Shown piece by piece: positions 1,667 to 11,893 of a DNA stretch of 14,369 bases. This DNA is from a virus. The stretch is from the UHGV virus genome UHGV-0126033, one strand, 5' to 3'. The notes under the pieces were generated by a model. That model ran no database searches, had not been told where the DNA came from, and worked only from the letters and a program-made list of their open reading frames with translations. A program made the position numbers and the translations under genes. The first letter of the stretch is position 1. Each line of letters begins with the position of its first letter.

Positions 1667-2686
1667 TTAGGGCTTGGTGGTGAAGGTGAACTTGGTCACT
1701 GCAGCGGTGTCCGGACGGCGCAGGCCGATGTTGTACATCGCGTAGCAGTCCAGCACGTTGCTGAACTCGCGCTCATCATCCCAGATACGGGAGGTGAACG
1801 GCTTAGCTTCAACAGTCACCAGGGTCTTGGACTTGCTGAAAGTCACCATACGGCACAGCGCGTCGTCAGAGGTGACGGTGTAAGCAGAGCCCAACGGGTG
1901 CGTACCGGCAGCGGTCGGGAACTCGGTGCACTCTACCACAGGCACGCCGTTCATCTTCACTACACGGCGGTCTTTGTAACCGTCGTTGTTGGATGCACCG
2001 AAGTCCAGGTTCAGGAGCTTCGGATGCTCCAGCAGACGCGAATAGGTATCGACATCCACCAGGGTAATCATGTCCGCCAGCGGGGTCTTGCGCTTGATGA
2101 GTTCATCGATACCAGCCTTGTGGGCCAGGTTGATGTTCATAGCGTTCGCCTCCATCTCAGCCTGGGTCAGCTGCGTGGCGGTGGTGGTACCCGGAACCAG
2201 GACGGCTGCGCCCACCTCGATACCGTCATTGAATGCTGGTTTCAGGTGCGCCGGAGCAACCCAGGAGCGGCCCTTGATGAGCTGAATCAGGTGCGCCTGG
2301 TCGAAGGTCTCCGCGAACTCAGAGCCGTTGTTCTGACCCATCTCGGTCAGGAAGTCCGGACCGGTCCAGTCATCCTGGTAGTCAATCGGGTTACGGATAT
2401 ACAGCACCGTATCCACCACGATAATCATCTTATCGTTACGGACCGGGGTGCTATCCAGCGCCTCACCGGAGCGACGACCTTTCACCGAGGAGGTGTTCAG
2501 GCGGTCAATACGGTAGGTGTTGGAACCACTGATAGAGCGCTGGCTGGAGAGGCCCAGGAACAGAGCCTGGTACTGGAAGCGGGTGTCGACTTCATTCTGG
2601 TACACTTCCAGGTGAATATCGACGTCAGACGCCGCGCCTGCCCAGTGGGCTCTTGTCAAGTTAGCTTTATAGATGGTATCGGCCAT
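1667..2686 (-). CDS. Major capsid protein (T7 gp10A-like)
   Basis: 339 aa, ATG at 2684-2686 with AAGGAAAG upstream. C-terminal YAMYNIGLRRPDTAAV resembles the T7 gp10A C-terminus (AKYAMGHGGLRPEAAGAV) as I recall it. Position after the scaffold gene and similar length to T7 10A (345 aa). Confidence 0.88.
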   Translation of the reverse strand: MADTIYKANLTRAHWAGAASDVDIHLEVYQNEVDTRFQYQALFLGLSSQRSISGSNTYRIDRLNTSSVKGRRSGEALDSTPVRNDKMIIVVDTVLYIRNPIDYQDDWTGPDFLTEMGQNNGSEFAETFDQAHLIQLIKGRSWVAPAHLKPAFNDGIEVGAAVLVPGTTTATQLTQAEMEANAMNINLAHKAGIDELIKRKTPLADMITLVDVDTYSRLLEHPKLLNLDFGASNNDGYKDRRVVKMNGVPVVECTEFPTAAGTHPLGSAYTVTSDDALCRMVTFSKSKTLVTVEAKPFTSRIWDDEREFSNVLDCYAMYNIGLRRPDTAAVTKFTFTTKP

Positions 2687-2698
2687 ATTCTACTTTCC

Positions 2699-3175
2699 TT
2701 ATTTAAGTACATTAACAGATGCATAAGCATGCATCTTTGCTTTAGCTTTCAGGTAGGCATCTCGCGCTGCGTGTTCGCAGTCAAAGTGCCCGAGGTGTGT
2801 TGTCTTACCATTTAGCTGTATGTAGGCCCGCCACTTGTTAGCTCGGGAATCCCAACAATAGCCTTTCCACACAGAGTTCTGAGCGTTACCTGATTTGTCA
2901 ACTAGGCGCAGGTTCTCAATTCTATTGTCTGCTTTATCCAGATTAATGTGGTCCACCATCAACCCTTGGGGTATATCCCCGTGATGCATGAACCAAACAA
3001 GCCGGTGTGCATACTCTCTCACCCGTCCCGCTGCCCCGCGGTCCCAGGTCACGCGGCGGTATCCCCAGTTATTCTGGTAGGTATCACCGAAACGACCTGT
3101 GGCCTTGTTAATCAAGCGCCCGTCTTCTGTGTAGGTGTAGCGATTAGCTAGTTCTTGCAAGAGATTAATCTCCAT
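2699..3175 (-). CDS. Free-standing HNH homing endonuclease with AP2-like DNA-binding domain
   Basis: 158 aa. HNH region YAHRLVWFMHHGDIPQGLMVDHINLDKADNRIENLRLV and AP2-like region WDSRANKWRAYIQLNGKTTHLGHFDCEHAARDAY. No clear Shine-Dalgarno; starts 12 nt after the scaffold stop. Confidence 0.85.
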   Translation of the reverse strand: MEINLLQELANRYTYTEDGRLINKATGRFGDTYQNNWGYRRVTWDRGAAGRVREYAHRLVWFMHHGDIPQGLMVDHINLDKADNRIENLRLVDKSGNAQNSVWKGYCWDSRANKWRAYIQLNGKTTHLGHFDCEHAARDAYLKAKAKMHAYASVNVLK

Positions 3176-3187
3176 GATTGGTAAGTA

Positions 3188-4030
3188 TTAGAGACCTACG
3201 CGCTTACCGGCTTCACGGCGTGCGAGCAAATCGTTATAACGTTGACTGAACTGTGGGGATGCCAAGCTACGGTTGCCCGCTTCCTGACGGAGTTTGGTAT
3301 ACTCTGCACGGAAGTCCGCAGCAGATAGTGCATTGTTGCTAGCTACGCCTCGTACCATTGGGTTCTGTGTCTTGATAAGACCCATATCCCGGCAGAAGCC
3401 CGCCACCAACTCGGCGGCCTGCTTAAGCTCGCCTGCGTTAGCGAGTACACGAGCTGCGTTACGCAGAGGTTCCGGAGCCTTGGAATTAAACAGCTGCGCT
3501 GCTACCTCCCAGTTCTCCTTCCCGCCTACAATATCGTAAGCTTCCTGTACTGCTTTGGTGGCTTGGCCAACCTGGTCTTCCAGGTACGCCTTGGCCAGCA
3601 GCTCTGCATAAGCAGCGTGCTCGCCGAAACGTTCCTTAATGAAGGCCGTATCGATTAGGTTAGGGTCCTGGTACTCCAGGGCCTTACCAAGTGCCCGCAC
3701 CATATCAGAGTCAGTTAACCCAGAGACTTTCTGCAACATAGCTACACCGGCGTCAATCGTCGGGTTGCCAGTCTTAGCCAGCTCCTGGGGCTGCTCTTTA
3801 GCGCTATCGCCACCCTTATCCAGGGCCGCTTTTAGGGCTTCGATATCCAGAGGAATCTTAGCAGGGTCAGGGGAATCTTTGCCCTGTTGCTGCTGGGTAG
3901 GTGTCTGTGCATCCTGCACGCCTTGATTGTTCGGGGCGCTAAGGGGAGCACCTAGGCCCGGAATCTTAGGACCACCTTGGTTCTCTACCTGTGTAGTTTC
4001 TACGTTTTGACCGTTTTCTACGTTATCCAT
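3188..4030 (-). CDS. Capsid assembly (scaffolding) protein, T7 gp9-like
   Basis: 280 aa, acidic, Ala/Gln/Glu-rich and low in aromatics. ATG at 4028-4030 with AGAGG upstream. Called by position between portal and capsid and by composition; no specific motif. Confidence 0.65.
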   Translation of the reverse strand: MDNVENGQNVETTQVENQGGPKIPGLGAPLSAPNNQGVQDAQTPTQQQQGKDSPDPAKIPLDIEALKAALDKGGDSAKEQPQELAKTGNPTIDAGVAMLQKVSGLTDSDMVRALGKALEYQDPNLIDTAFIKERFGEHAAYAELLAKAYLEDQVGQATKAVQEAYDIVGGKENWEVAAQLFNSKAPEPLRNAARVLANAGELKQAAELVAGFCRDMGLIKTQNPMVRGVASNNALSAADFRAEYTKLRQEAGNRSLASPQFSQRYNDLLARREAGKRVGL

Positions 4031-4044
4031 CTATGCCTCTGTTG

Positions 4045-5640
4045 TTAACTTGGTAATAAGCCCAGCTGCTTACCTGCTACTGTCGGGTCCGCTGCTGTCA
4101 AGCCCTGGAGTTGGTCCTGTGCTGCACCTGCGGATACATCGGCAGACGCATCTTGAACCTGTTGCTTCTGCTGCAGCTGCTCTTCGGTGTACATGAACGG
4201 CTCGCTGACGATACCATAGGCGTCGAAGTACCAGTCTACACACGCATCCTTGTTGAAGCGCGGAGTAATCTGCTCAAGCACCGGGATAGCCAGCTGCATG
4301 GACTGTGCCGCCTCTAACAGCTTGTCCGCTGCCGCGGCTTTAGCCAGCGCAGAGGTACCTACTGTAACGTTGATGCTCACCACGCCTTCGCTGAGGTACA
4401 ACTTAAAGCGAGGGTACACCAGTGCAGTGTACAGGTACGCCAGCTTACGCAGCCAGGTGTCGCTCAGGATACTGAACCCACCACCCATAGCGGCTTCCGC
4501 CTCTTTGGCGTTCTGGCGAATCTCATAAGCCGTGACACGCTCACCCTGCCGGGAGTTGCCGGTGTACATAAACGCACGAGACAGTTTCTGTTCGAGCATC
4601 TGGATGTTGCTGGCAATCCACTGAATCTTCTGGGCAGAGCCGCCCTCGTAAGCAGTGACAGGAGACTTAGTGTTTCCGTTGGAACCACCGCCGCCCACCT
4701 GCACGGCCTCCCCGGTCTCCGCCGTAGAGAACTCGTCCACATCCAGGCCAGAACTAGAATCTACTAGTGGAATCAGCCGAGAGGCTTCGACCTCGTAGTT
4801 AGTCAGTGCTTCCGACAGTACCGATAATCGGGCAAAGTCCCCAGCGTAGTCCTCTACCAAGCCGCGCCCGTAGTGCTCGCCACTAACAAGGTTCCACACC
4901 AGCACGTTGTAGGGGAGCTCCAGCTCCGGATAGGTGCTGCTGTCCCCGATACGGTGTCCATCGGCTTCTTGATACACCTCGTAGCTTACTACCTCTACGC
5001 CTTCCTCTGTCAGCTTAACTTTGCGACAAGCGGCAGTGTAGATATCAACGTCGCCGTATGGGTCTTTGTCACGGTAGAAGGTGTTCTGGAAATCCTCTGG
5101 CAGGTCCTGGACGCTTGTGCGCTCTCTGATAATGAGTCGCAGGACGTTCCCGCTGCCATCCCTTCGAACGGTAAAGTTACGAACTGAGTAGACGATGGAT
5201 TTACCTGTCCGCTCATCAATATACTCCAACGCGTTACCTGTAACCAGCAGCAGCTTCACAGCTTGCAACTTCGCAGCATAACCGTCTTTCTCAAATACTT
5301 TCTGTGACGCTGTGTTCTCAACCTCAGCCAGCTTAGATTCTGCCGTAGCTGCACTGCCCAGCGAACTAATGAACTCGTCCAGGTCCGAACTCTTGGAGAA
5401 CCGGAAGAAGCTAGTGCCCTGAGGGAACAGTGCCCCTACAATCTTAGTGGCTGCAGTGTTGACCAGCTGCGCGCCGGTGCTCTGGTAGTCACGCTCTAGC
5501 GGTCTGCGTCTACCGTCCAGGGAATCGTCCCGGGTAAAGATAGTGCTGAGCGTCCACTGCGCGAACTTCTCGGAGGCATCCAATACACCTGCGTCCTGGT
5601 CCTTCTTAAAGAGTTCTGCTAATGTTGCTTTTTGTTCCAA
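4045..5640 (-). CDS. Portal (head-tail connector) protein, T7 gp8-like
   Basis: 531 aa (T7 gp8 is 536 aa). N-terminus MEQKATLAE resembles T7 gp8 MAEKRTGLAE as recalled. Apparent TTG start at 5638-5640 with AGGGGG four nt upstream; no in-frame ATG near the 5' end. Confidence 0.75.
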   Translation of the reverse strand: MEQKATLAELFKKDQDAGVLDASEKFAQWTLSTIFTRDDSLDGRRRPLERDYQSTGAQLVNTAATKIVGALFPQGTSFFRFSKSSDLDEFISSLGSAATAESKLAEVENTASQKVFEKDGYAAKLQAVKLLLVTGNALEYIDERTGKSIVYSVRNFTVRRDGSGNVLRLIIRERTSVQDLPEDFQNTFYRDKDPYGDVDIYTAACRKVKLTEEGVEVVSYEVYQEADGHRIGDSSTYPELELPYNVLVWNLVSGEHYGRGLVEDYAGDFARLSVLSEALTNYEVEASRLIPLVDSSSGLDVDEFSTAETGEAVQVGGGGSNGNTKSPVTAYEGGSAQKIQWIASNIQMLEQKLSRAFMYTGNSRQGERVTAYEIRQNAKEAEAAMGGGFSILSDTWLRKLAYLYTALVYPRFKLYLSEGVVSINVTVGTSALAKAAAADKLLEAAQSMQLAIPVLEQITPRFNKDACVDWYFDAYGIVSEPFMYTEEQLQQKQQVQDASADVSAGAAQDQLQGLTAADPTVAGKQLGLLPS

Positions 5641-6353: not shown

Positions 6354-6378
6354 TCCTACTCCTGTAACATTAAATTTT

Positions 6379-8847
6379 TTAGCAGAAGAAGAACGGGGAT
6401 TCTAGCACTTGCCGGATGTCCAAAGTGCCCACTTCCGGCATGTCCAGGTCCGTCAAGTCTGCCCCGGCTGCTGCTGCCGCGCGAGTAATGTAGCCAAGCA
6501 GGTCATTCTCTTCATACAGGCGCACAAACTGCTCACGGATGTGCCTATGCATAGCGTCAACGTCAGCTGCGTGAGTAGCCAGCGAGTCGTGAATAGGCAC
6601 AATGTCCAACCCCTCCGCAGCACAGAGCACCATCATCAAGTGCGTACTGTCCAGGCTATGCACAAAGTTCGGGGCAATCCCGGAGGCTGCCTTGCGCTTG
6701 TTGCAAGTTTTGAAGTCCCGGTTGTGTACCAGTACCGCTGACAGGTTCATGCAGTCAATACGTACGCGCACTTCTTCACGCTGCGTGTAGCGGTTCATTA
6801 CGAGCCCACCCAGCGGCGTATACCACTGCAGATGCTGGCTTGCCGGTACACGCCTAGCGAGGTTCTGCAAGTACCCCATAACTGCGGCTGCGGCTGGGTT
6901 TGCCTCCTCGATAGCAGTGCGCATACGCGGAGCCAGGTAGCATGACAAGTTCCACAGACTGTTAGTCTCAGTACCCTCGTACCCCTCAGCGCAAGCGCCT
7001 TCGAAGATGTAGTCGCTGCAGCTGCGCACAGTGGCGCTGTAGAAGTAGGTCATACTAGGGCGCTTGGTCATGCTGCGGGTGATTTCGTTCTCTCTCCAGT
7101 ACGTGCTCTGGATAACGAAATCCTCCTTGTCCAGGTCCAGTATCACCTTCTCGTCCGTACGGCGCTTCACGTCCATGTACAGGTCCGCTTTCTTATCATT
7201 ACCCTCCCAGTACAGGTTCGTCAAGCGTCCGCCCACAGGGTCTCTCAGGAGCGCTGAGAGATGCTGTCCACCTGAGTTTGTAGCGTCCATAGCAACTGGG
7301 ATTCGGCTAATATGCTCTTCTGGGCATCCAGAACGAACCGCATTAACCAAGTCGATAGCGGCGGCCAGCAGGCACCAGGGGCTATCCGCAGAGGAAAAAG
7401 CAGGGGCATCAAGAGGAGAATCCGCGAGCCTCTCAATCTCTGCATAGTTCGCATCAACCCAAGCTGCACGGTCTTCGAATAGGGTTTTGTCATAACCAAA
7501 GCAAGTGGCGACGTGCACTTTAAGCCAGAAAAGTCCGCGCTCTCCCAGAGGCTTGCCACGTCCGAATTCAAGAAGGGCTTTCTGCAAATCAGAACCTTGG
7601 GGATGCAGCGAGGACTTGAAGTACAGGCGGTAGCGCCAGTCCACACAAGTCGGGAAGTACAGGGCTTTCTCATCTTTGAATTCCTCCGCCATTTCCAGCG
7701 TGGTCAACAGGCTGCGTAGTTGTGACACACGCTTACGGTCTGCGCTGTACCATAGGGACATGCGCGTCTTCCACTCACCGAAGCGGCCCAGTTCTTCTTC
7801 GGTGTAGTTCTCTTTTGGTACTCCATCCAAGTACCACTCCGGTTTAGGCTCTGGTACTGAGCGGGGCATGCCCACCCCAATACCCAGGGCCCGTGCTTCT
7901 TGCACCAGTTCCAGTATGCGCTTATTAATACGGTATGGGGTTTCCTGTGCCTTATTAAGCGCCTTCTTGATGCCGTCCGCGGACTTAAATGCTTCCGCTA
8001 CTTCACGGAGTCGCGCGCGGTCGATGTGCGAGTTGTGATAGGTCCCGCGATTGTCGATGGGGGTAAGGTACCCGCCATCCCACATAGTGGTGTGCTGTAC
8101 CGGTGGCACCAGCATAGGCGGCTTCATGGTTACGGTATCAGCGGACTCTACCAGTTTCTGGAAGGCCTCCATAACATCGTCAGCCGGGTAGAGCATGCTC
8201 AGGTTCCCACTACAGTTCTTCCATTGGAACAGGCCAGTCTCAAACACCGCGGCACATAGCAGCCGACCTACTGAGATATTCTGGGAGTTGGTCCATGGCT
8301 CGTGCCCATAGTGCACGTTCTCAGCACTGGCCCGCAGCGTACGCAGGATGTGCGTGGGAGACTTGGTCTTACGCTCCGTAAGGTACTCGTACACACGGTC
8401 CATGTACGCCGGAGCCACGTTGCGTAACTGCAGGGCCAGCAGTTCCGATTGTACGTTCCGGCCCAGCGCGGACATTACCGCCTGTGCAGTCTGGCGGCGG
8501 CTAGCGGACTCGCCAGGAGCTACGCTAAATGCCTCAAACATTGTGCATAGGCTCAGGGTGGTCAGGACATCCAAGGGGACTAAGCGCAGGAACCGGCGGT
8601 ACTTACCGCCAATGCCCGGGGCTTTTACATTTCGCATCTCATCGATAGCGGCGGCGGCCACCTCATATGCCGAGGTGAGCATACGCTGCGTCATCGGCAG
8701 GTTCATAATCCCACCGTTCTGCAATGCGTCCGTAATCAGCTTACGTGCCCGCTCGATTCCGCGAATCTTATAGGTCTCTTCAAGCTCCAGCTGGCGTTTC
8801 ACCAGTGCTTCCTCTGGTACTACAACCGTATTCAGGGCGCTAATCAT
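6379..8847 (-). CDS. Single-subunit DNA-directed RNA polymerase (T7 RNAP family)
   Basis: 822 aa. Matches to T7 RNAP conserved blocks: YFPTCVDWRYRLY and HPQGSD, DATNSGGQHLSALLRD (motif A aspartate), ASGIAPNFVHSLDSTHL, IHDSLAT (motif C aspartate), C-terminal LESPFFFC (T7 ends ESDFAFA). ATG at 8845-8847 with AAGGAGA upstream. Confidence 0.95.
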   Translation of the reverse strand: MISALNTVVVPEEALVKRQLELEETYKIRGIERARKLITDALQNGGIMNLPMTQRMLTSAYEVAAAAIDEMRNVKAPGIGGKYRRFLRLVPLDVLTTLSLCTMFEAFSVAPGESASRRQTAQAVMSALGRNVQSELLALQLRNVAPAYMDRVYEYLTERKTKSPTHILRTLRASAENVHYGHEPWTNSQNISVGRLLCAAVFETGLFQWKNCSGNLSMLYPADDVMEAFQKLVESADTVTMKPPMLVPPVQHTTMWDGGYLTPIDNRGTYHNSHIDRARLREVAEAFKSADGIKKALNKAQETPYRINKRILELVQEARALGIGVGMPRSVPEPKPEWYLDGVPKENYTEEELGRFGEWKTRMSLWYSADRKRVSQLRSLLTTLEMAEEFKDEKALYFPTCVDWRYRLYFKSSLHPQGSDLQKALLEFGRGKPLGERGLFWLKVHVATCFGYDKTLFEDRAAWVDANYAEIERLADSPLDAPAFSSADSPWCLLAAAIDLVNAVRSGCPEEHISRIPVAMDATNSGGQHLSALLRDPVGGRLTNLYWEGNDKKADLYMDVKRRTDEKVILDLDKEDFVIQSTYWRENEITRSMTKRPSMTYFYSATVRSCSDYIFEGACAEGYEGTETNSLWNLSCYLAPRMRTAIEEANPAAAAVMGYLQNLARRVPASQHLQWYTPLGGLVMNRYTQREEVRVRIDCMNLSAVLVHNRDFKTCNKRKAASGIAPNFVHSLDSTHLMMVLCAAEGLDIVPIHDSLATHAADVDAMHRHIREQFVRLYEENDLLGYITRAAAAAGADLTDLDMPEVGTLDIRQVLESPFFFC

Positions 8848-8988: not shown

Positions 8989-9444
8989 TCACTTGGCGTC
9001 AATGCACTTACCTCTGTGTTGCTCGTATAGTTCTGAGTACTTGTCGGACTTGGCAATGTCTTGTTCCAGCTTATCCTTGTTCCCGGCGCGCAGTCTGTAC
9101 TTGAGCCGGTTCCCCAGGCAGTATCCGTAGAACTGCTCTTTCGTCATACTGCGTGCAATCACCTCAATTGCCTCCAGGTCCGGGAAGAACTGGTAGTGCT
9201 TGGGTGAGTTCACTGCGTCGGGCGCTTGTGTGCTGGTTATGGGGACTTCCCCCGCTACATGGAAGTAGTCCGCGCGCCAACCGCCAGCTAGGTCTCCGCT
9301 TAGTGTAATTGTGGTGCCACTAACCTCAAGCACCTCCCTGGAGGCGTATGGGGAGATATGAAGAGACTCGCAGATTCGAGACCAGTCACCCGACACGTGC
9401 GTAGCTTTACGAACTACCACATCACCAACTTTAATATTACTCAT
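8989..9444 (-). CDS. T7 gp1.7-like protein (DUF3310 C-terminal domain; putative nucleotide kinase) with a different N-terminal domain
   Basis: 151 aa. C-terminal HYQFFPDLEAIEVIARSMTKEQFYGYCLGNRLKYRLRAGNK resembles the T7 gp1.7 C-terminus (HYMLFDDIEAIEVIARSMTVEQFKGYCFGNILKYRLRAGKK) as recalled. N-terminal 70 aa (MSNIKVGDVVVRK...) lacks the T7 gp1.7 Cys-rich region. ATG at 9442-9444 overlaps the endonuclease VII stop as ATGA. Confidence 0.7.
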   Translation of the reverse strand: MSNIKVGDVVVRKATHVSGDWSRICESLHISPYASREVLEVSGTTITLSGDLAGGWRADYFHVAGEVPITSTQAPDAVNSPKHYQFFPDLEAIEVIARSMTKEQFYGYCLGNRLKYRLRAGNKDKLEQDIAKSDKYSELYEQHRGKCIDAK

Positions 9445-9884
9445 TTAATAGTCTCCCGTGCTTTACGTCGTGCCCGGGCCTTGCGGGCCTTGAGCTTCTG
9501 TGCCTGCGCCAATTCTTCCGGCGTCTTGTGCGTATAGTATAGCATATCCGTAGGTTCGCGGTCTAAGTAATCGGCGACCCTACGTAGAGATTCAGCAATA
9601 GCCCCAGAAGATTGCATGCTACCAACAATCCAGCGCCCAGCGGCAGATGCCACTTTGCCTTCCCCTCCATTGCACGAGCGATGAAGAGCACCCCGAATAC
9701 GCCCAGTAATATGATCGTGGTCAACGACAACAGAATCACCAGTTACCCCCTTGATTGTGAAGTCCAAAGGTTTGCCACAAAGGGGGCAGATACCTCCCTG
9801 GTCTTTGGCAAGCTTAATTGCCACGGAGCGAATCTGTGCCCGTGTAATCTTCCGCAGACTCATACGTATATGAACCCCCACCAT
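9441..9884 (-). CDS. Endonuclease VII-like Holliday-junction resolvase (T4 gp49 family)
   Basis: CPLCGKPL followed by VVVDHDHITGRIRGALHRSCNGGEG, the zinc-binding and DHDH pattern of endonuclease VII. Start uncertain: ATG at 9884 has no Shine-Dalgarno; ATG at 9863 (MSLRK...) has a G-rich stretch upstream. Confidence 0.8.
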   Translation of the reverse strand: MVGVHIRMSLRKITRAQIRSVAIKLAKDQGGICPLCGKPLDFTIKGVTGDSVVVDHDHITGRIRGALHRSCNGGEGKVASAAGRWIVGSMQSSGAIAESLRRVADYLDREPTDMLYYTHKTPEELAQAQKLKARKARARRKARETIK

Positions 9885-9983
9885 AAATGCGCGGAGCGTA
9901 TGTGAGCTACGGTCAGTGCCGGAGACATCACCTCTCCGGTGTTAGTGCACCTAACCTGAACCCCTTGCTGTGGGGCGGGTTCC

Positions 9984-10011
9984 AATATATACACGTCTTG
10001 TGTATCCTCAA
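9984..10011 (-). promoter_or_regulatory. Candidate sigma70-like promoter (TTGAGG, 16 nt, TATATT) in the intergenic region upstream of the endonuclease VII gene
   Basis: On the minus strand TTGAGG (plus 10006-10011) and TATATT (plus 9984-9989) with a 16-nt spacer. Match by eye only, in the most AT-rich part of an otherwise GC-richer window. Confidence 0.25.
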
Positions 10012-10032
10012 AAGTATATTCTCTACCCATTT

Positions 10033-10233
10033 CTAACATAGTTCAATCTCCCCCACTACATCCAGCATAGCATTGTCGTGAATGAGAGAATCCAAATGCT
10101 CAACCGTTCTTCGATGTGTTTTGGGTGCTCGTTCACGCAGCGCAACCAGAATAGTTTCAAGTTCATCATGTTTCCCCTCGTAGTATAACTCAATCGCCCG
10201 CAGGCTCATTTCCTTCGCAGACATCTTCGCCAT
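10033..10233 (-). CDS. Hypothetical small acidic protein (66 aa from the ATG at 10233)
   Basis: Track ORF 10033..10302. The ATG at 10231-10233 (MAKMSAKEM...) has AGGAG 12 nt upstream and overlaps the exonuclease 3' end by 44 nt. Glu/Asp-rich. No motif. Confidence 0.45.
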   Translation of the reverse strand: MAKMSAKEMSLRAIELYYEGKHDELETILVALRERAPKTHRRTVEHLDSLIHDNAMLDVVGEIELC

Positions 10234-11158: not shown

Positions 11159-11319
11159 CAGACCCCCGTAACCTTCTTGGTCAACTTACGCGCCCAGGAT
11201 TCCCAGGCGGTCAGCGCCTTGCTGTTCTCTACCTTCTCAAACACCCAGCACAAGATGGCTACCGGTACTAGAGGGGCCACTAGCATAAAATAAAATACTC
11301 TGGCAAGGGTATTTCGCAT
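11158..11319 (-). CDS. Unlisted small ORF, 53 aa, predicted single-pass membrane protein
   Basis: Hand translation MRNTLARVFYFMLVAPLVPVAILCWVFEKVENSKALTAWESWARKLTKKVTGV. ATG at 11317-11319 with GGAGA seven nt upstream; TGA stop overlaps the exonuclease ATG as ATGA. Fills an otherwise 160-nt gap. Below the track length cut-off. Confidence 0.4.
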   Translation of the reverse strand: MRNTLARVFYFMLVAPLVPVAILCWVFEKVENSKALTAWESWARKLTKKVTGV

Positions 11320-11321
11320 TA

Positions 11322-11519
11322 TTAAATCTCCAGTCTAGCTACTGATTTAGTAGCTGATTTCACCTGCTTACGGGTAGGTTTAGCGGCCCAGCGCACCACG
11401 TACATGGTGCAAGGGTCGTCCTCCCGGATAAAGGTTACGTACCAGCGGTTGCAGGCATGCTCAGCATAAGGTGCCATAAAGCTGTGCCTAGGTGCGTGCA
11501 CCTCTACACGTACGCCCAT
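11322..11519 (-). CDS. Hypothetical protein (65 aa from the ATG at 11519)
   Basis: Track start 11525 is a TTG; the ATG at 11517-11519 has GGAGG seven nt upstream and lies 2 nt after the upstream gene stop. Protein MGVRVEVHAPRHSFMAPYAEHACNRWYVTFIRE...; no motif. Confidence 0.5.
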   Translation of the reverse strand: MGVRVEVHAPRHSFMAPYAEHACNRWYVTFIREDDPCTMYVVRWAAKPTRKQVKSATKSVARLEI

Positions 11520-11521
11520 GC

Positions 11522-11893
11522 TCAAGCCTCCAGCTCAGATAGCACCAGCACGGTGCCGAGCATGTCCCCGATTACTTCCGGAGTACGCAGGCTCTGGTCT
11601 ACGTCGTAGATGCAGGAACCAATCTCCGCCAGCCCGATGCTTAGCGTACCCACTACACGGATAAGCACGAGGTCGTCGCCACGTAGCTTATCGGCATGTG
11701 CCGCCAGGTCGTTGTGCTCTTTGAAGGCGGTAGCGGCCAACTCCAGGTCCATGCCGTACAGGGCCGCCAGCTTGTCCAGAGCATCGTACACAGCGCCGAG
11801 CTGGTCACCATTGTCGAAACCTTGAACGGCGCTACAGTTCACGTAACCTACAGCCAGAACCAGTTTCTTGTATGCGTCTAGTACTTTGTCCAT
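11522..11893 (-). CDS. Hypothetical acidic protein (123 aa); weak resemblance to all-alpha NTP pyrophosphohydrolase (MazG-like) helices
   Basis: ATG at 11891-11893 overlaps the upstream stop as TAATG. Segments LAEIGSCIYD and EVIGDMLGTVLVLSE loosely resemble MazG-type E-x-x-E and E-x-x-D helices, but the order is atypical, so the call is tentative. Confidence 0.5.
   Translation of the reverse strand: MDKVLDAYKKLVLAVGYVNCSAVQGFDNGDQLGAVYDALDKLAALYGMDLELAATAFKEHNDLAAHADKLRGDDLVLIRVVGTLSIGLAEIGSCIYDVDQSLRTPEVIGDMLGTVLVLSELEA

Follow-up and report, generated by a model that had tools for sequence, protein, structure and literature searches.

A free-standing HNH-AP2 gene between the scaffold and capsid genes of a KP34-like Klebsiella phage is probably a homing endonuclease gene

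The stretch of DNA analysed here (UHGV virus genome UHGV-0126033, 14,369 nt), hereafter called the window, was assigned by megablast to a Klebsiella Drulisvirus of the KP34-like type (Autographiviridae, Slopekvirinae). Its closest relatives genome-wide in the megablast search were RCIP0106 (95.2%) and RCIP0044 (94.3%), and its sequence is identical to part of the ENA metagenome contig ERZ1304258 NODE_586. The long ORFs without exception lie on the minus strand, as do the genes and sequence elements mapped below at and around the HNH ORF, and run from metallo-phosphoesterase, exonuclease, endonuclease VII, nucleotide kinase and an 822-aa T7-type RNA polymerase (a label that this ORF also carries in the annotation of relatives) to portal, scaffold, an HNH ORF, major capsid and tail tubular protein A, which is the gene layout of KP34-like podoviruses. 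The HNH ORF (2699-3175, 158 aa), which begins with an ATG at 3175 and ends with a TAA stop codon at 2701-2699, has as its upstream neighbour the gene for a 280-aa head scaffolding protein (3188-4030; phrog_1018, E = 5.6e-70), whose counterparts in XP4, KpV74 and SU503 are annotated as scaffolding proteins and which is itself preceded by the portal gene (4045-5640). The downstream neighbour is the 339-aa major capsid gene (1667-2686; phrog_267 major head protein, E = 1.8e-96). The spacers on either side of the HNH ORF are both 12 nt long (3176-3187 and 2687-2698), confirming the 12 nt given for one of them in the first-pass annotation and correcting the 10 nt given for the other. Across the window, identity to relatives was sharply mosaic: it was ~100% to RCIP0106 and RCIP0044 over 14270-11770 and fell to 0.47-0.8 in short patches, where XP4 or KpV475 was closer; low-identity patches were seen at 11170-11670, at 9170-9470 and, over ~300 nt inside the RNA polymerase gene, at 7270-7570.

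Judged by its sequence features, the HNH protein is a two-domain enzyme of the cysteine-less "HNN" type (PMC2248197). Residues 55-98 (2882-3013) matched the Pfam HNH_3 domain, a beta-beta-alpha-metal fold, with an E value of 2e-19 (69.3 bits, the cut-off being 24.8), and residues 104-149 (2729-2866) make up a C-terminal AP2-like DNA-binding domain of three strands and a helix. The Pfam AP2 match (E = 2.4e-4, 21.8 bits) lies below the gathering score of 33.3 bits, and the AP2 fold was confirmed structurally. In PHROGs, the ORF was assigned to phrog_99, HNH endonuclease (E = 3.7e-46), and no family matched in an NCBIfam scan of the protein. The first-pass annotation had described a 158-aa HNH plus AP2-like ORF between scaffold and capsid and had proposed the HNH and AP2 profile searches as a check; the strong HNH_3 match, and the AP2 fold seen structurally, agree with that description. 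The sole significant match in a PDB sequence search was I-HmuI (E = 2e-4, residues 19-113), with which the HNH protein has in common an N-terminal beta-sheet followed by the HNH core fold. In an alignment of 92 homologues, the invariant columns were H57, D75, H76, N88, L89, R90, N97 and N100, and D75, H76 and N97 align with D74, H75 and N96 of I-HmuI, which we take to be the active-site residues of that enzyme. Both the nuclease motif and these catalytic residues are intact in the protein of the window, which has in its AP2 domain a DNA-binding module distinct from the nuclease motif.

The location of the ORF inside the head-morphogenesis gene block would be in keeping with a packaging-associated HNH protein, that is, a terminase cofactor serving genome maturation as in cos-type HK97-like phages. 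Packaging-associated phage HNH proteins have a zinc-binding [CxxC]2 arrangement around the HNH motif (PMC3592412). However, a search of the HNH protein sequence for CxxC pairs found none, and instead of a paired CxxC zinc site the protein has the HNH_3/I-HmuI type of nuclease with an AP2 domain; likewise, no terminase gene adjoins the ORF, whose neighbours are scaffold and capsid.

The distribution of the gene at the scaffold-capsid junction was assessed in two collections. A scaffold-to-capsid DNA query matched 305 phage records in GenBank, 265 of them at ≥80% identity, and HNH DNA was present in 21 of the 305 (one of the 21 being a RefSeq duplicate). Among the 80 IMG/VR loci recovered by a capsid protein search, the junction is empty in 64, with a spacer of 9-66 nt, and occupied by an HNH-family ORF in 16. 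Drulisvirus genomes with an empty junction have a spacer of 24-25 nt. The 25-nt form, which runs from the scaffold stop codon to the capsid ATG, is found in RCIP0106, RCIP0044, KpV475, SU503, KX1 and Kp_Pokalde_001, and reads TCTCATT[T/C]AAAAGGAAAAGTAAGAT in five of these six, KpV475 having a diverged 25-nt version. With a scaffold-capsid distance of 501 nt in the window and 25 nt at the empty site, the net insertion is 476 nt. The Shine-Dalgarno sequence of the capsid gene, AAGGA (2696-2700, within AAGGAAA), overlaps the HNH stop codon and is retained from the empty-site spacer, the sequence ahead of the capsid start being TCTCATTTAAAAGGAAAAGTAAGAT-ATG at the empty site and ...CTTAAATAAGGAAAGTAGAAT-ATG at the occupied one. 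The earlier prediction that close relatives would lack the insertion is thus borne out, by the empty junctions of RCIP0106 and RCIP0044 as well as by the record and locus counts, and the junction alignment that had been suggested as a check revealed an ORF that is sporadic and absent from most relatives. These presence/absence data also contradict a role as terminase cofactor, since the gene is missing from most of the genus, the closest relatives included, and we consider a packaging function extremely unlikely.

Where the junction is occupied, the occupants are of several kinds, which we graded by amino-acid identity to the HNH protein of the window. Lineage A (92-99%) comprises the window, XP4 and KpV74, and lineage B (78-80%) comprises Kpp-9 and IME308; these are followed by the ZH5 lineage (77%), the Enterobacter phage phiKDA1 of the genus Koutsourovirus (66%; L007, 2501-2977), L079 (57%), L080 (52%), the L021/PWKp type (48%), L071 (44%) and the Pectobacterium phage PhiM1 (42%; L008, 2459-2917). 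The phiKDA1 and PhiM1 genes are likewise at the scaffold-capsid junction, although PhiM1 belongs to another subfamily, the Corkvirinae. A GGAG-N9-start arrangement is common to lineages A and B, ZH5, phiKDA1 and L079, and the junction motif CTTAAATAAGGA is common to the same set with the exception of L079. In PhiM1, the endonuclease ORF and the capsid start overlap by 4 nt.

Translation of the HNH gene could begin at either of two codons. The 12 nt ahead of the ATG at 3175 contain no Shine-Dalgarno sequence, and a Shine-Dalgarno-like GGAG (3170-3173) is located 9 nt upstream of an in-frame TTG (3158-3160), codon 6 of the 158-aa reading, which would give a 153-aa product. The first-pass remark that the ORF has no obvious ribosome-binding site therefore holds for the ATG but not for the TTG. 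Several relatives are annotated from the TTG position (153 aa), and most homologues begin there. At the position of the window's ATG, lineage B has ACG and L079 has CCG, such that both must start at the TTG position, where phiKDA1 has an ATG; the P0006-like lineage has Ile at the TTG codon and so must use an upstream ATG or GTG. Re-initiation at ATG 3175 is possible given that the scaffold stop codon is only 12 nt before it. For the window, products of 158 aa (ATG 3175) and 153 aa (TTG 3160) are both possible readings of the sequence.

A scan for sigma-70 promoters and terminators predicted none between scaffold and capsid on the coding strand (phage-RNAP promoters being outside the scope of the tool), and the sole coding-strand terminator in the scan is at 1467-1440, after a small ORF downstream of the capsid gene. 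An Rfam scan of the window gave no intron or other RNA family, and a tRNA scan gave no tRNA. The HNH ORF is a separate reading frame in the intergenic spacer, with both neighbouring genes intact, and, given the lack of an Rfam RNA match, it is a free-standing rather than an intron-borne gene.

Two potential RNA elements were noted within the HNH ORF. The palindrome GAGATTAATCTC (3161-3172) overlaps the GGAG motif and lies between ATG/GGAG and the TTG; its lineage B counterpart, GAGGTCAACCTC, has a compensatory A-U to G-C change. The palindrome could pair with the Shine-Dalgarno sequence in a 5-bp stem, which was predicted in 5 of 5 folded lineages at -3.5 to -5.5 kcal/mol. This stem has little stability and shuffled sequences fold equally well (z about 0), and we therefore do not claim a Shine-Dalgarno-sequestering 5' hairpin as a regulator. 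The same nucleotides encode a conserved peptide, E-[IV]-N-L, and coding constraint could account for the conservation of GAGATTAATCTC where the start is the upstream ATG or GTG. The second element, an 8-bp hairpin, AGAUGCAU-GCUU-AUGCAUCU (2717-2736), is in the 3' end of the ORF ~30 nt upstream of the capsid start, and was found as an inverted repeat with a predicted fold of about -11 kcal/mol. Hairpins of about -10 to -13 kcal/mol were predicted at this position in six lineages, with a different stem sequence in phiKDA1, L071 and L079, and the KpV74 hairpin has a compensatory U-A to C-G change. In shuffle tests of single sequences, the support was modest, with 2-45 of 200 shuffles folding as well.

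We compared the history of the HNH gene with that of its neighbours. Between the window and L018, which carries a lineage B gene, dS was 0.20 for scaffold and 0.19 for capsid, and the HNH gene was saturated in dS with a dN of 0.175; between the window and XP4, by contrast, HNH dS (0.095) was lower than flank dS (0.19-0.20). By these values, the divergence of the HNH gene is decoupled from that of its flanks. In a segment nearest-neighbour scan, the scaffold gene of the window was identical to that of the HNH-minus locus L037 over 4027-3548, and the capsid gene was identical to that of the HNH-minus phage KX1 over 2206-1787. The HNH gene and capsid nt 1-50 matched HNH+ phages only. For capsid nt 1-120, the best matches were all HNH+ (4 mismatches to L046, 7 to XP4, and 11 to L077 and MC07C), compared to 17-25 mismatches to HNH-minus phages, and the alignment places the HNH-linked block in the capsid gene at nt ~6-50. 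In these comparisons, the HNH gene and capsid nt 1-50 are one haplotype block in a backbone of HNH-minus type.

A tract of 956 nt (2634-3589) had 0 mismatches between the window and loci L095 and L099, which are from another sample, have a different backbone and encode an HNH protein identical to that of the window. The tract begins 414 nt upstream of the HNH start, takes in the last ~400 nt of the scaffold gene, the HNH gene and capsid nt 1-53, and ends at capsid nt 53; outside it, the window and L095/L099 differ by 2-5%. This tract, together with the matches in the segment scan, indicates that the HNH cassette was recently exchanged between backbones along with short flanks. Wherever differences were sufficient to measure it, pairwise dN/dS of the HNH gene was 0.03-0.13 (about 0.1). 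Decaying copies were also found. In L067 and L070 (sample 3300045988, nt about 1995-2500), a lineage A gene has a 4-nt GAGA repeat expansion that causes a frameshift ahead of the catalytic domain. These frameshifted copies are on near-complete phage contigs, a further point against a packaging function. Truncated forms are found in RCIP0099 (141 aa) and P0033 (a fragment of 96 aa). The gene is thus under purifying selection yet appears dispensable to the phage. An intact gene under selection in some genomes, no gene in most relatives and decay in others collectively make up the life cycle expected of a homing endonuclease gene, and HNN-AP2 genes of Xanthomonas phages have a like pattern of intact, absent and decaying copies (PMC2248197).

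The decayed copies, and a genus so mosaic across the window that general recombination alone moves segments, might also be expected if the gene were an inactive relic, an old insertion passed on by vertical inheritance and ordinary recombination with no endonuclease-driven mobility. However, the copy in the window is intact with all of its catalytic residues, a dN/dS of about 0.1 indicates a protein under selection, and the exchanged blocks centre on the HNH gene and end repeatedly at one capsid position. We therefore regard a relic as very improbable.

The capsid side of the junction stood out in a further respect. The major capsid gene is hypervariable in its first ~50 nt (2637-2686), a patch that is, by linkage and diversity, inherited with the HNH gene. 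Association of flank sites with HNH occupancy, by a statistic that ignores phylogeny, peaked in capsid nt 1-50, with a -log10 p of 7.7 at nt 33, and the 3'-terminal 600 nt of the scaffold gene showed none (maximum -log10 p of 2.5). In capsid nt 1-50, 27 of the 50 sites are variable. Nucleotide diversity over capsid nt 1-60 (2627-2686) was 0.20-0.22, 3-4 times higher than the 0.05-0.08 found further in, was raised at third and at first plus second codon positions alike, and was also high when only HNH-minus phages were considered. The final 60 nt of the scaffold gene show unusually little variation (nucleotide diversity of 0.03-0.04). From the linkage and diversity, we infer that the endonuclease target or an immunity determinant is in this 5' patch of the capsid gene; some of the diversity could come from a capsid N-terminal arm under relaxed constraint. 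The recurrence of the right-hand boundary at capsid nt ~50 is unlike what random resection would predict, which is a point against the homing explanation. As a possible marker of sensitive alleles we considered the AP2 "GCC-box", GGCGGC, at the capsid 5' end. Although the window, XP4 and L046 have a disrupted box, the HNH+ phages KpV74, MC07C and L077 have an intact one, and it was rejected as a simple explanation.

Hypervariability of the capsid 5' patch even in HNH-minus phages is also expected if these phages are under attack by a nuclease that is kept because it helps its own phage, and is domesticated or beneficial rather than purely selfish. Such a protein might cut HNH-less competitors in co-infection (marker exclusion) or bind near the capsid gene and tune late expression. 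A dN/dS of about 0.1 and old, diverged lineages at one site would also fit a phage-beneficial gene: purifying selection is strong (0.03-0.13), anciently diverged lineages persist at the scaffold-capsid junction across three genera or subfamilies, and AP2 domains have acquired regulatory roles in other settings (PMC10448857). However, about 80-93% of close relatives do without the gene, and copies with frameshifts or truncations are in circulation. The nuclease residues, superfluous in a pure regulator, are all intact, and exclusion of competitors follows from homing with no separate mechanism. We consider a primarily beneficial role improbable.

We thus favour, as highly probable from the comparative sequence data, the reading that ORF 2699-3175 encodes a homing endonuclease and forms a free-standing, selfish cassette of ~476 nt in the 25-nt scaffold-capsid spacer. 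The sporadic presence, the decoupled divergence, the identical 956-nt tract and the lack of an intron all support the original suggestion that a mobile homing endonuclease has invaded this late-gene junction. The protein would combine an I-HmuI-like N-terminal module, in which an HNH/HNN nuclease (D75, H76 and N97) comes after a beta-sheet, with an AP2-type DNA-binding domain. Upon co-infection with an HNH-less relative, the enzyme would recognise a sequence close to the empty junction, most likely in capsid nt 1 to ~50, and nick or cut it; repair on the HNH-carrying template would then copy the cassette and a short flank into the recipient. The carrier would be protected by sequence differences in the flank and/or by the insertion itself. 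The gene would be co-transcribed with the late structural genes and probably translated weakly, with initiation at TTG 3160 through the GGAG (3173-3170) or, once ribosomes have terminated at the scaffold stop, re-initiation at ATG 3175.

A joint reading of the capsid 5' patch and the RNA elements adds several components to this homing scheme, and we offer it tentatively, as a possibility that we find rather doubtful as a whole: a target in the capsid 5' end, hypervariability through an arms race, one-sided tracts of the nickase type, and cassette-borne RNA elements that insulate the capsid ribosome-binding site. Attack by several diverged HNH lineages and the ensuing repair would leave a hypervariable, HNH-linked patch in the N-terminal coding region, and this arms race would also alter capsid amino acids 2-17. 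One-sided repair initiated at a nick by an I-HmuI-like nickase would give tracts that end at capsid nt ~50. The conserved 5' Shine-Dalgarno palindrome and the 3' hairpin would be RNA elements carried by the cassette that hold HNH translation low and keep the insertion from disturbing the ribosome-binding site of the capsid gene. Were the capsid 5' patch indeed the target, diversity at the capsid N-terminus would be driven directly by homing.

The junction is not the only place in these genomes where HNH genes were seen. Between tail tubular protein A and the small ORF that follows the capsid gene there is a second slot for an endonuclease; in the window it is empty (1386-1472) and contains only the terminator at 1467-1440. 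In many relatives this slot is occupied by a different, 155-aa HNH_3 gene whose product is 31-39% identical to that of ORF 2699-3175, including L095 (4958-5425), L099 (4440-4907) and many IMG/VR loci at about 3950-4260; BUCT86 ORF29 is a published example (PMC9119126). XP4 (locus L013; 7803-8279 and 3875-4324) has two more HNH genes, of which the first follows the RNA polymerase gene immediately and the second is located between endonuclease VII and the exonuclease region. At the first of these sites the window has a 25-nt spacer (6354-6378), and at the second a 59-aa ORF with no PHROG match (9860-10039).

Near-identical HNH genes at the scaffold-capsid junction are already annotated in GenBank, and the type of element is ordinary, a textbook selfish gene; it is the comparative evidence for its mobility, as read from sequence, that is unusually clean. 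Our literature search on HNH genes of Drulisvirus/KP34 and on Autographiviridae homing endonucleases of the free-standing kind found genome descriptions and no experimental work. The insertion accounts for length variation in what is the most conserved region of Drulisvirus genomes, and flags a recombination hotspot beside the capsid gene in candidate therapy phages against Klebsiella pneumoniae. The 25-nt empty and 501-nt occupied sites form a natural allele pair that is tractable for tests of HNH-AP2 homing.

Among characterised enzymes, I-HmuI (PDB 1U3E), an intron-encoded HNH homing endonuclease of Bacillus phage SPO1, is only 23% identical to the HNH protein. The I-HmuI gene is carried by a group I intron, and the DNA-binding modules at the C-terminal end of the enzyme are helical and helix-turn-helix. 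The gene in the window, in contrast, is free-standing between two complete genes, has no intron match and ends in an AP2 domain. A counterpart among the homing endonucleases of phage T4 is mobE, which is also a free-standing HNH-family gene between conserved genes and moves by cleavage of the endonuclease-lacking allele with co-conversion of the flanks (PMC2790892); homing of mobE was shown experimentally, whereas for the gene in the window it is deduced from comparative data only.

Free-standing HNN-AP2 endonucleases are known in phages Xp10, OP1 and Xop411 of Xanthomonas oryzae (PMC2248197), and phages, cyanobacteria and protists have a family of HNH-AP2 homing endonucleases, as cited in PMC10448857. 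Genes of the latter family tend to sit beside essential genes, for example capsid, and at boundaries of genetic exchange (PMC10448857), and in PhiM1-like phages homing endonucleases are interspersed among the structural genes (PMC6115819). The Xanthomonas phage genes and the HNH-AP2 family have in common with the window an N-terminal HNH/HNN and a C-terminal AP2 domain, the boxes HRLxW, DH, DNR, NLR and xN with no CxxC, and a free-standing, sporadic occurrence with degenerate copies near essential genes including capsid; the phage groups and insertion sites differ. The "IPA-HNH" proteins of ICP1 are too diverged to match Pfam HNH_3 (PMC10448857), which the protein of the window matches strongly. 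The most similar genes are those annotated at the same junction in other Drulisvirus phages, vB_Kp_XP4 (XAG93571.1, 99.4% aa identity), KpV74 (gp40, APZ82752.1, 96%) and Kpp-9 (ORF34, 78%), which are labelled "HNH endonuclease" or, for Kpp-9, "HNH homing endonuclease". Their position, domains and junction sequences are as in the window, and nothing substantial differs, the window being a metagenomic contig with a backbone closest to phages that lack the HNH gene.
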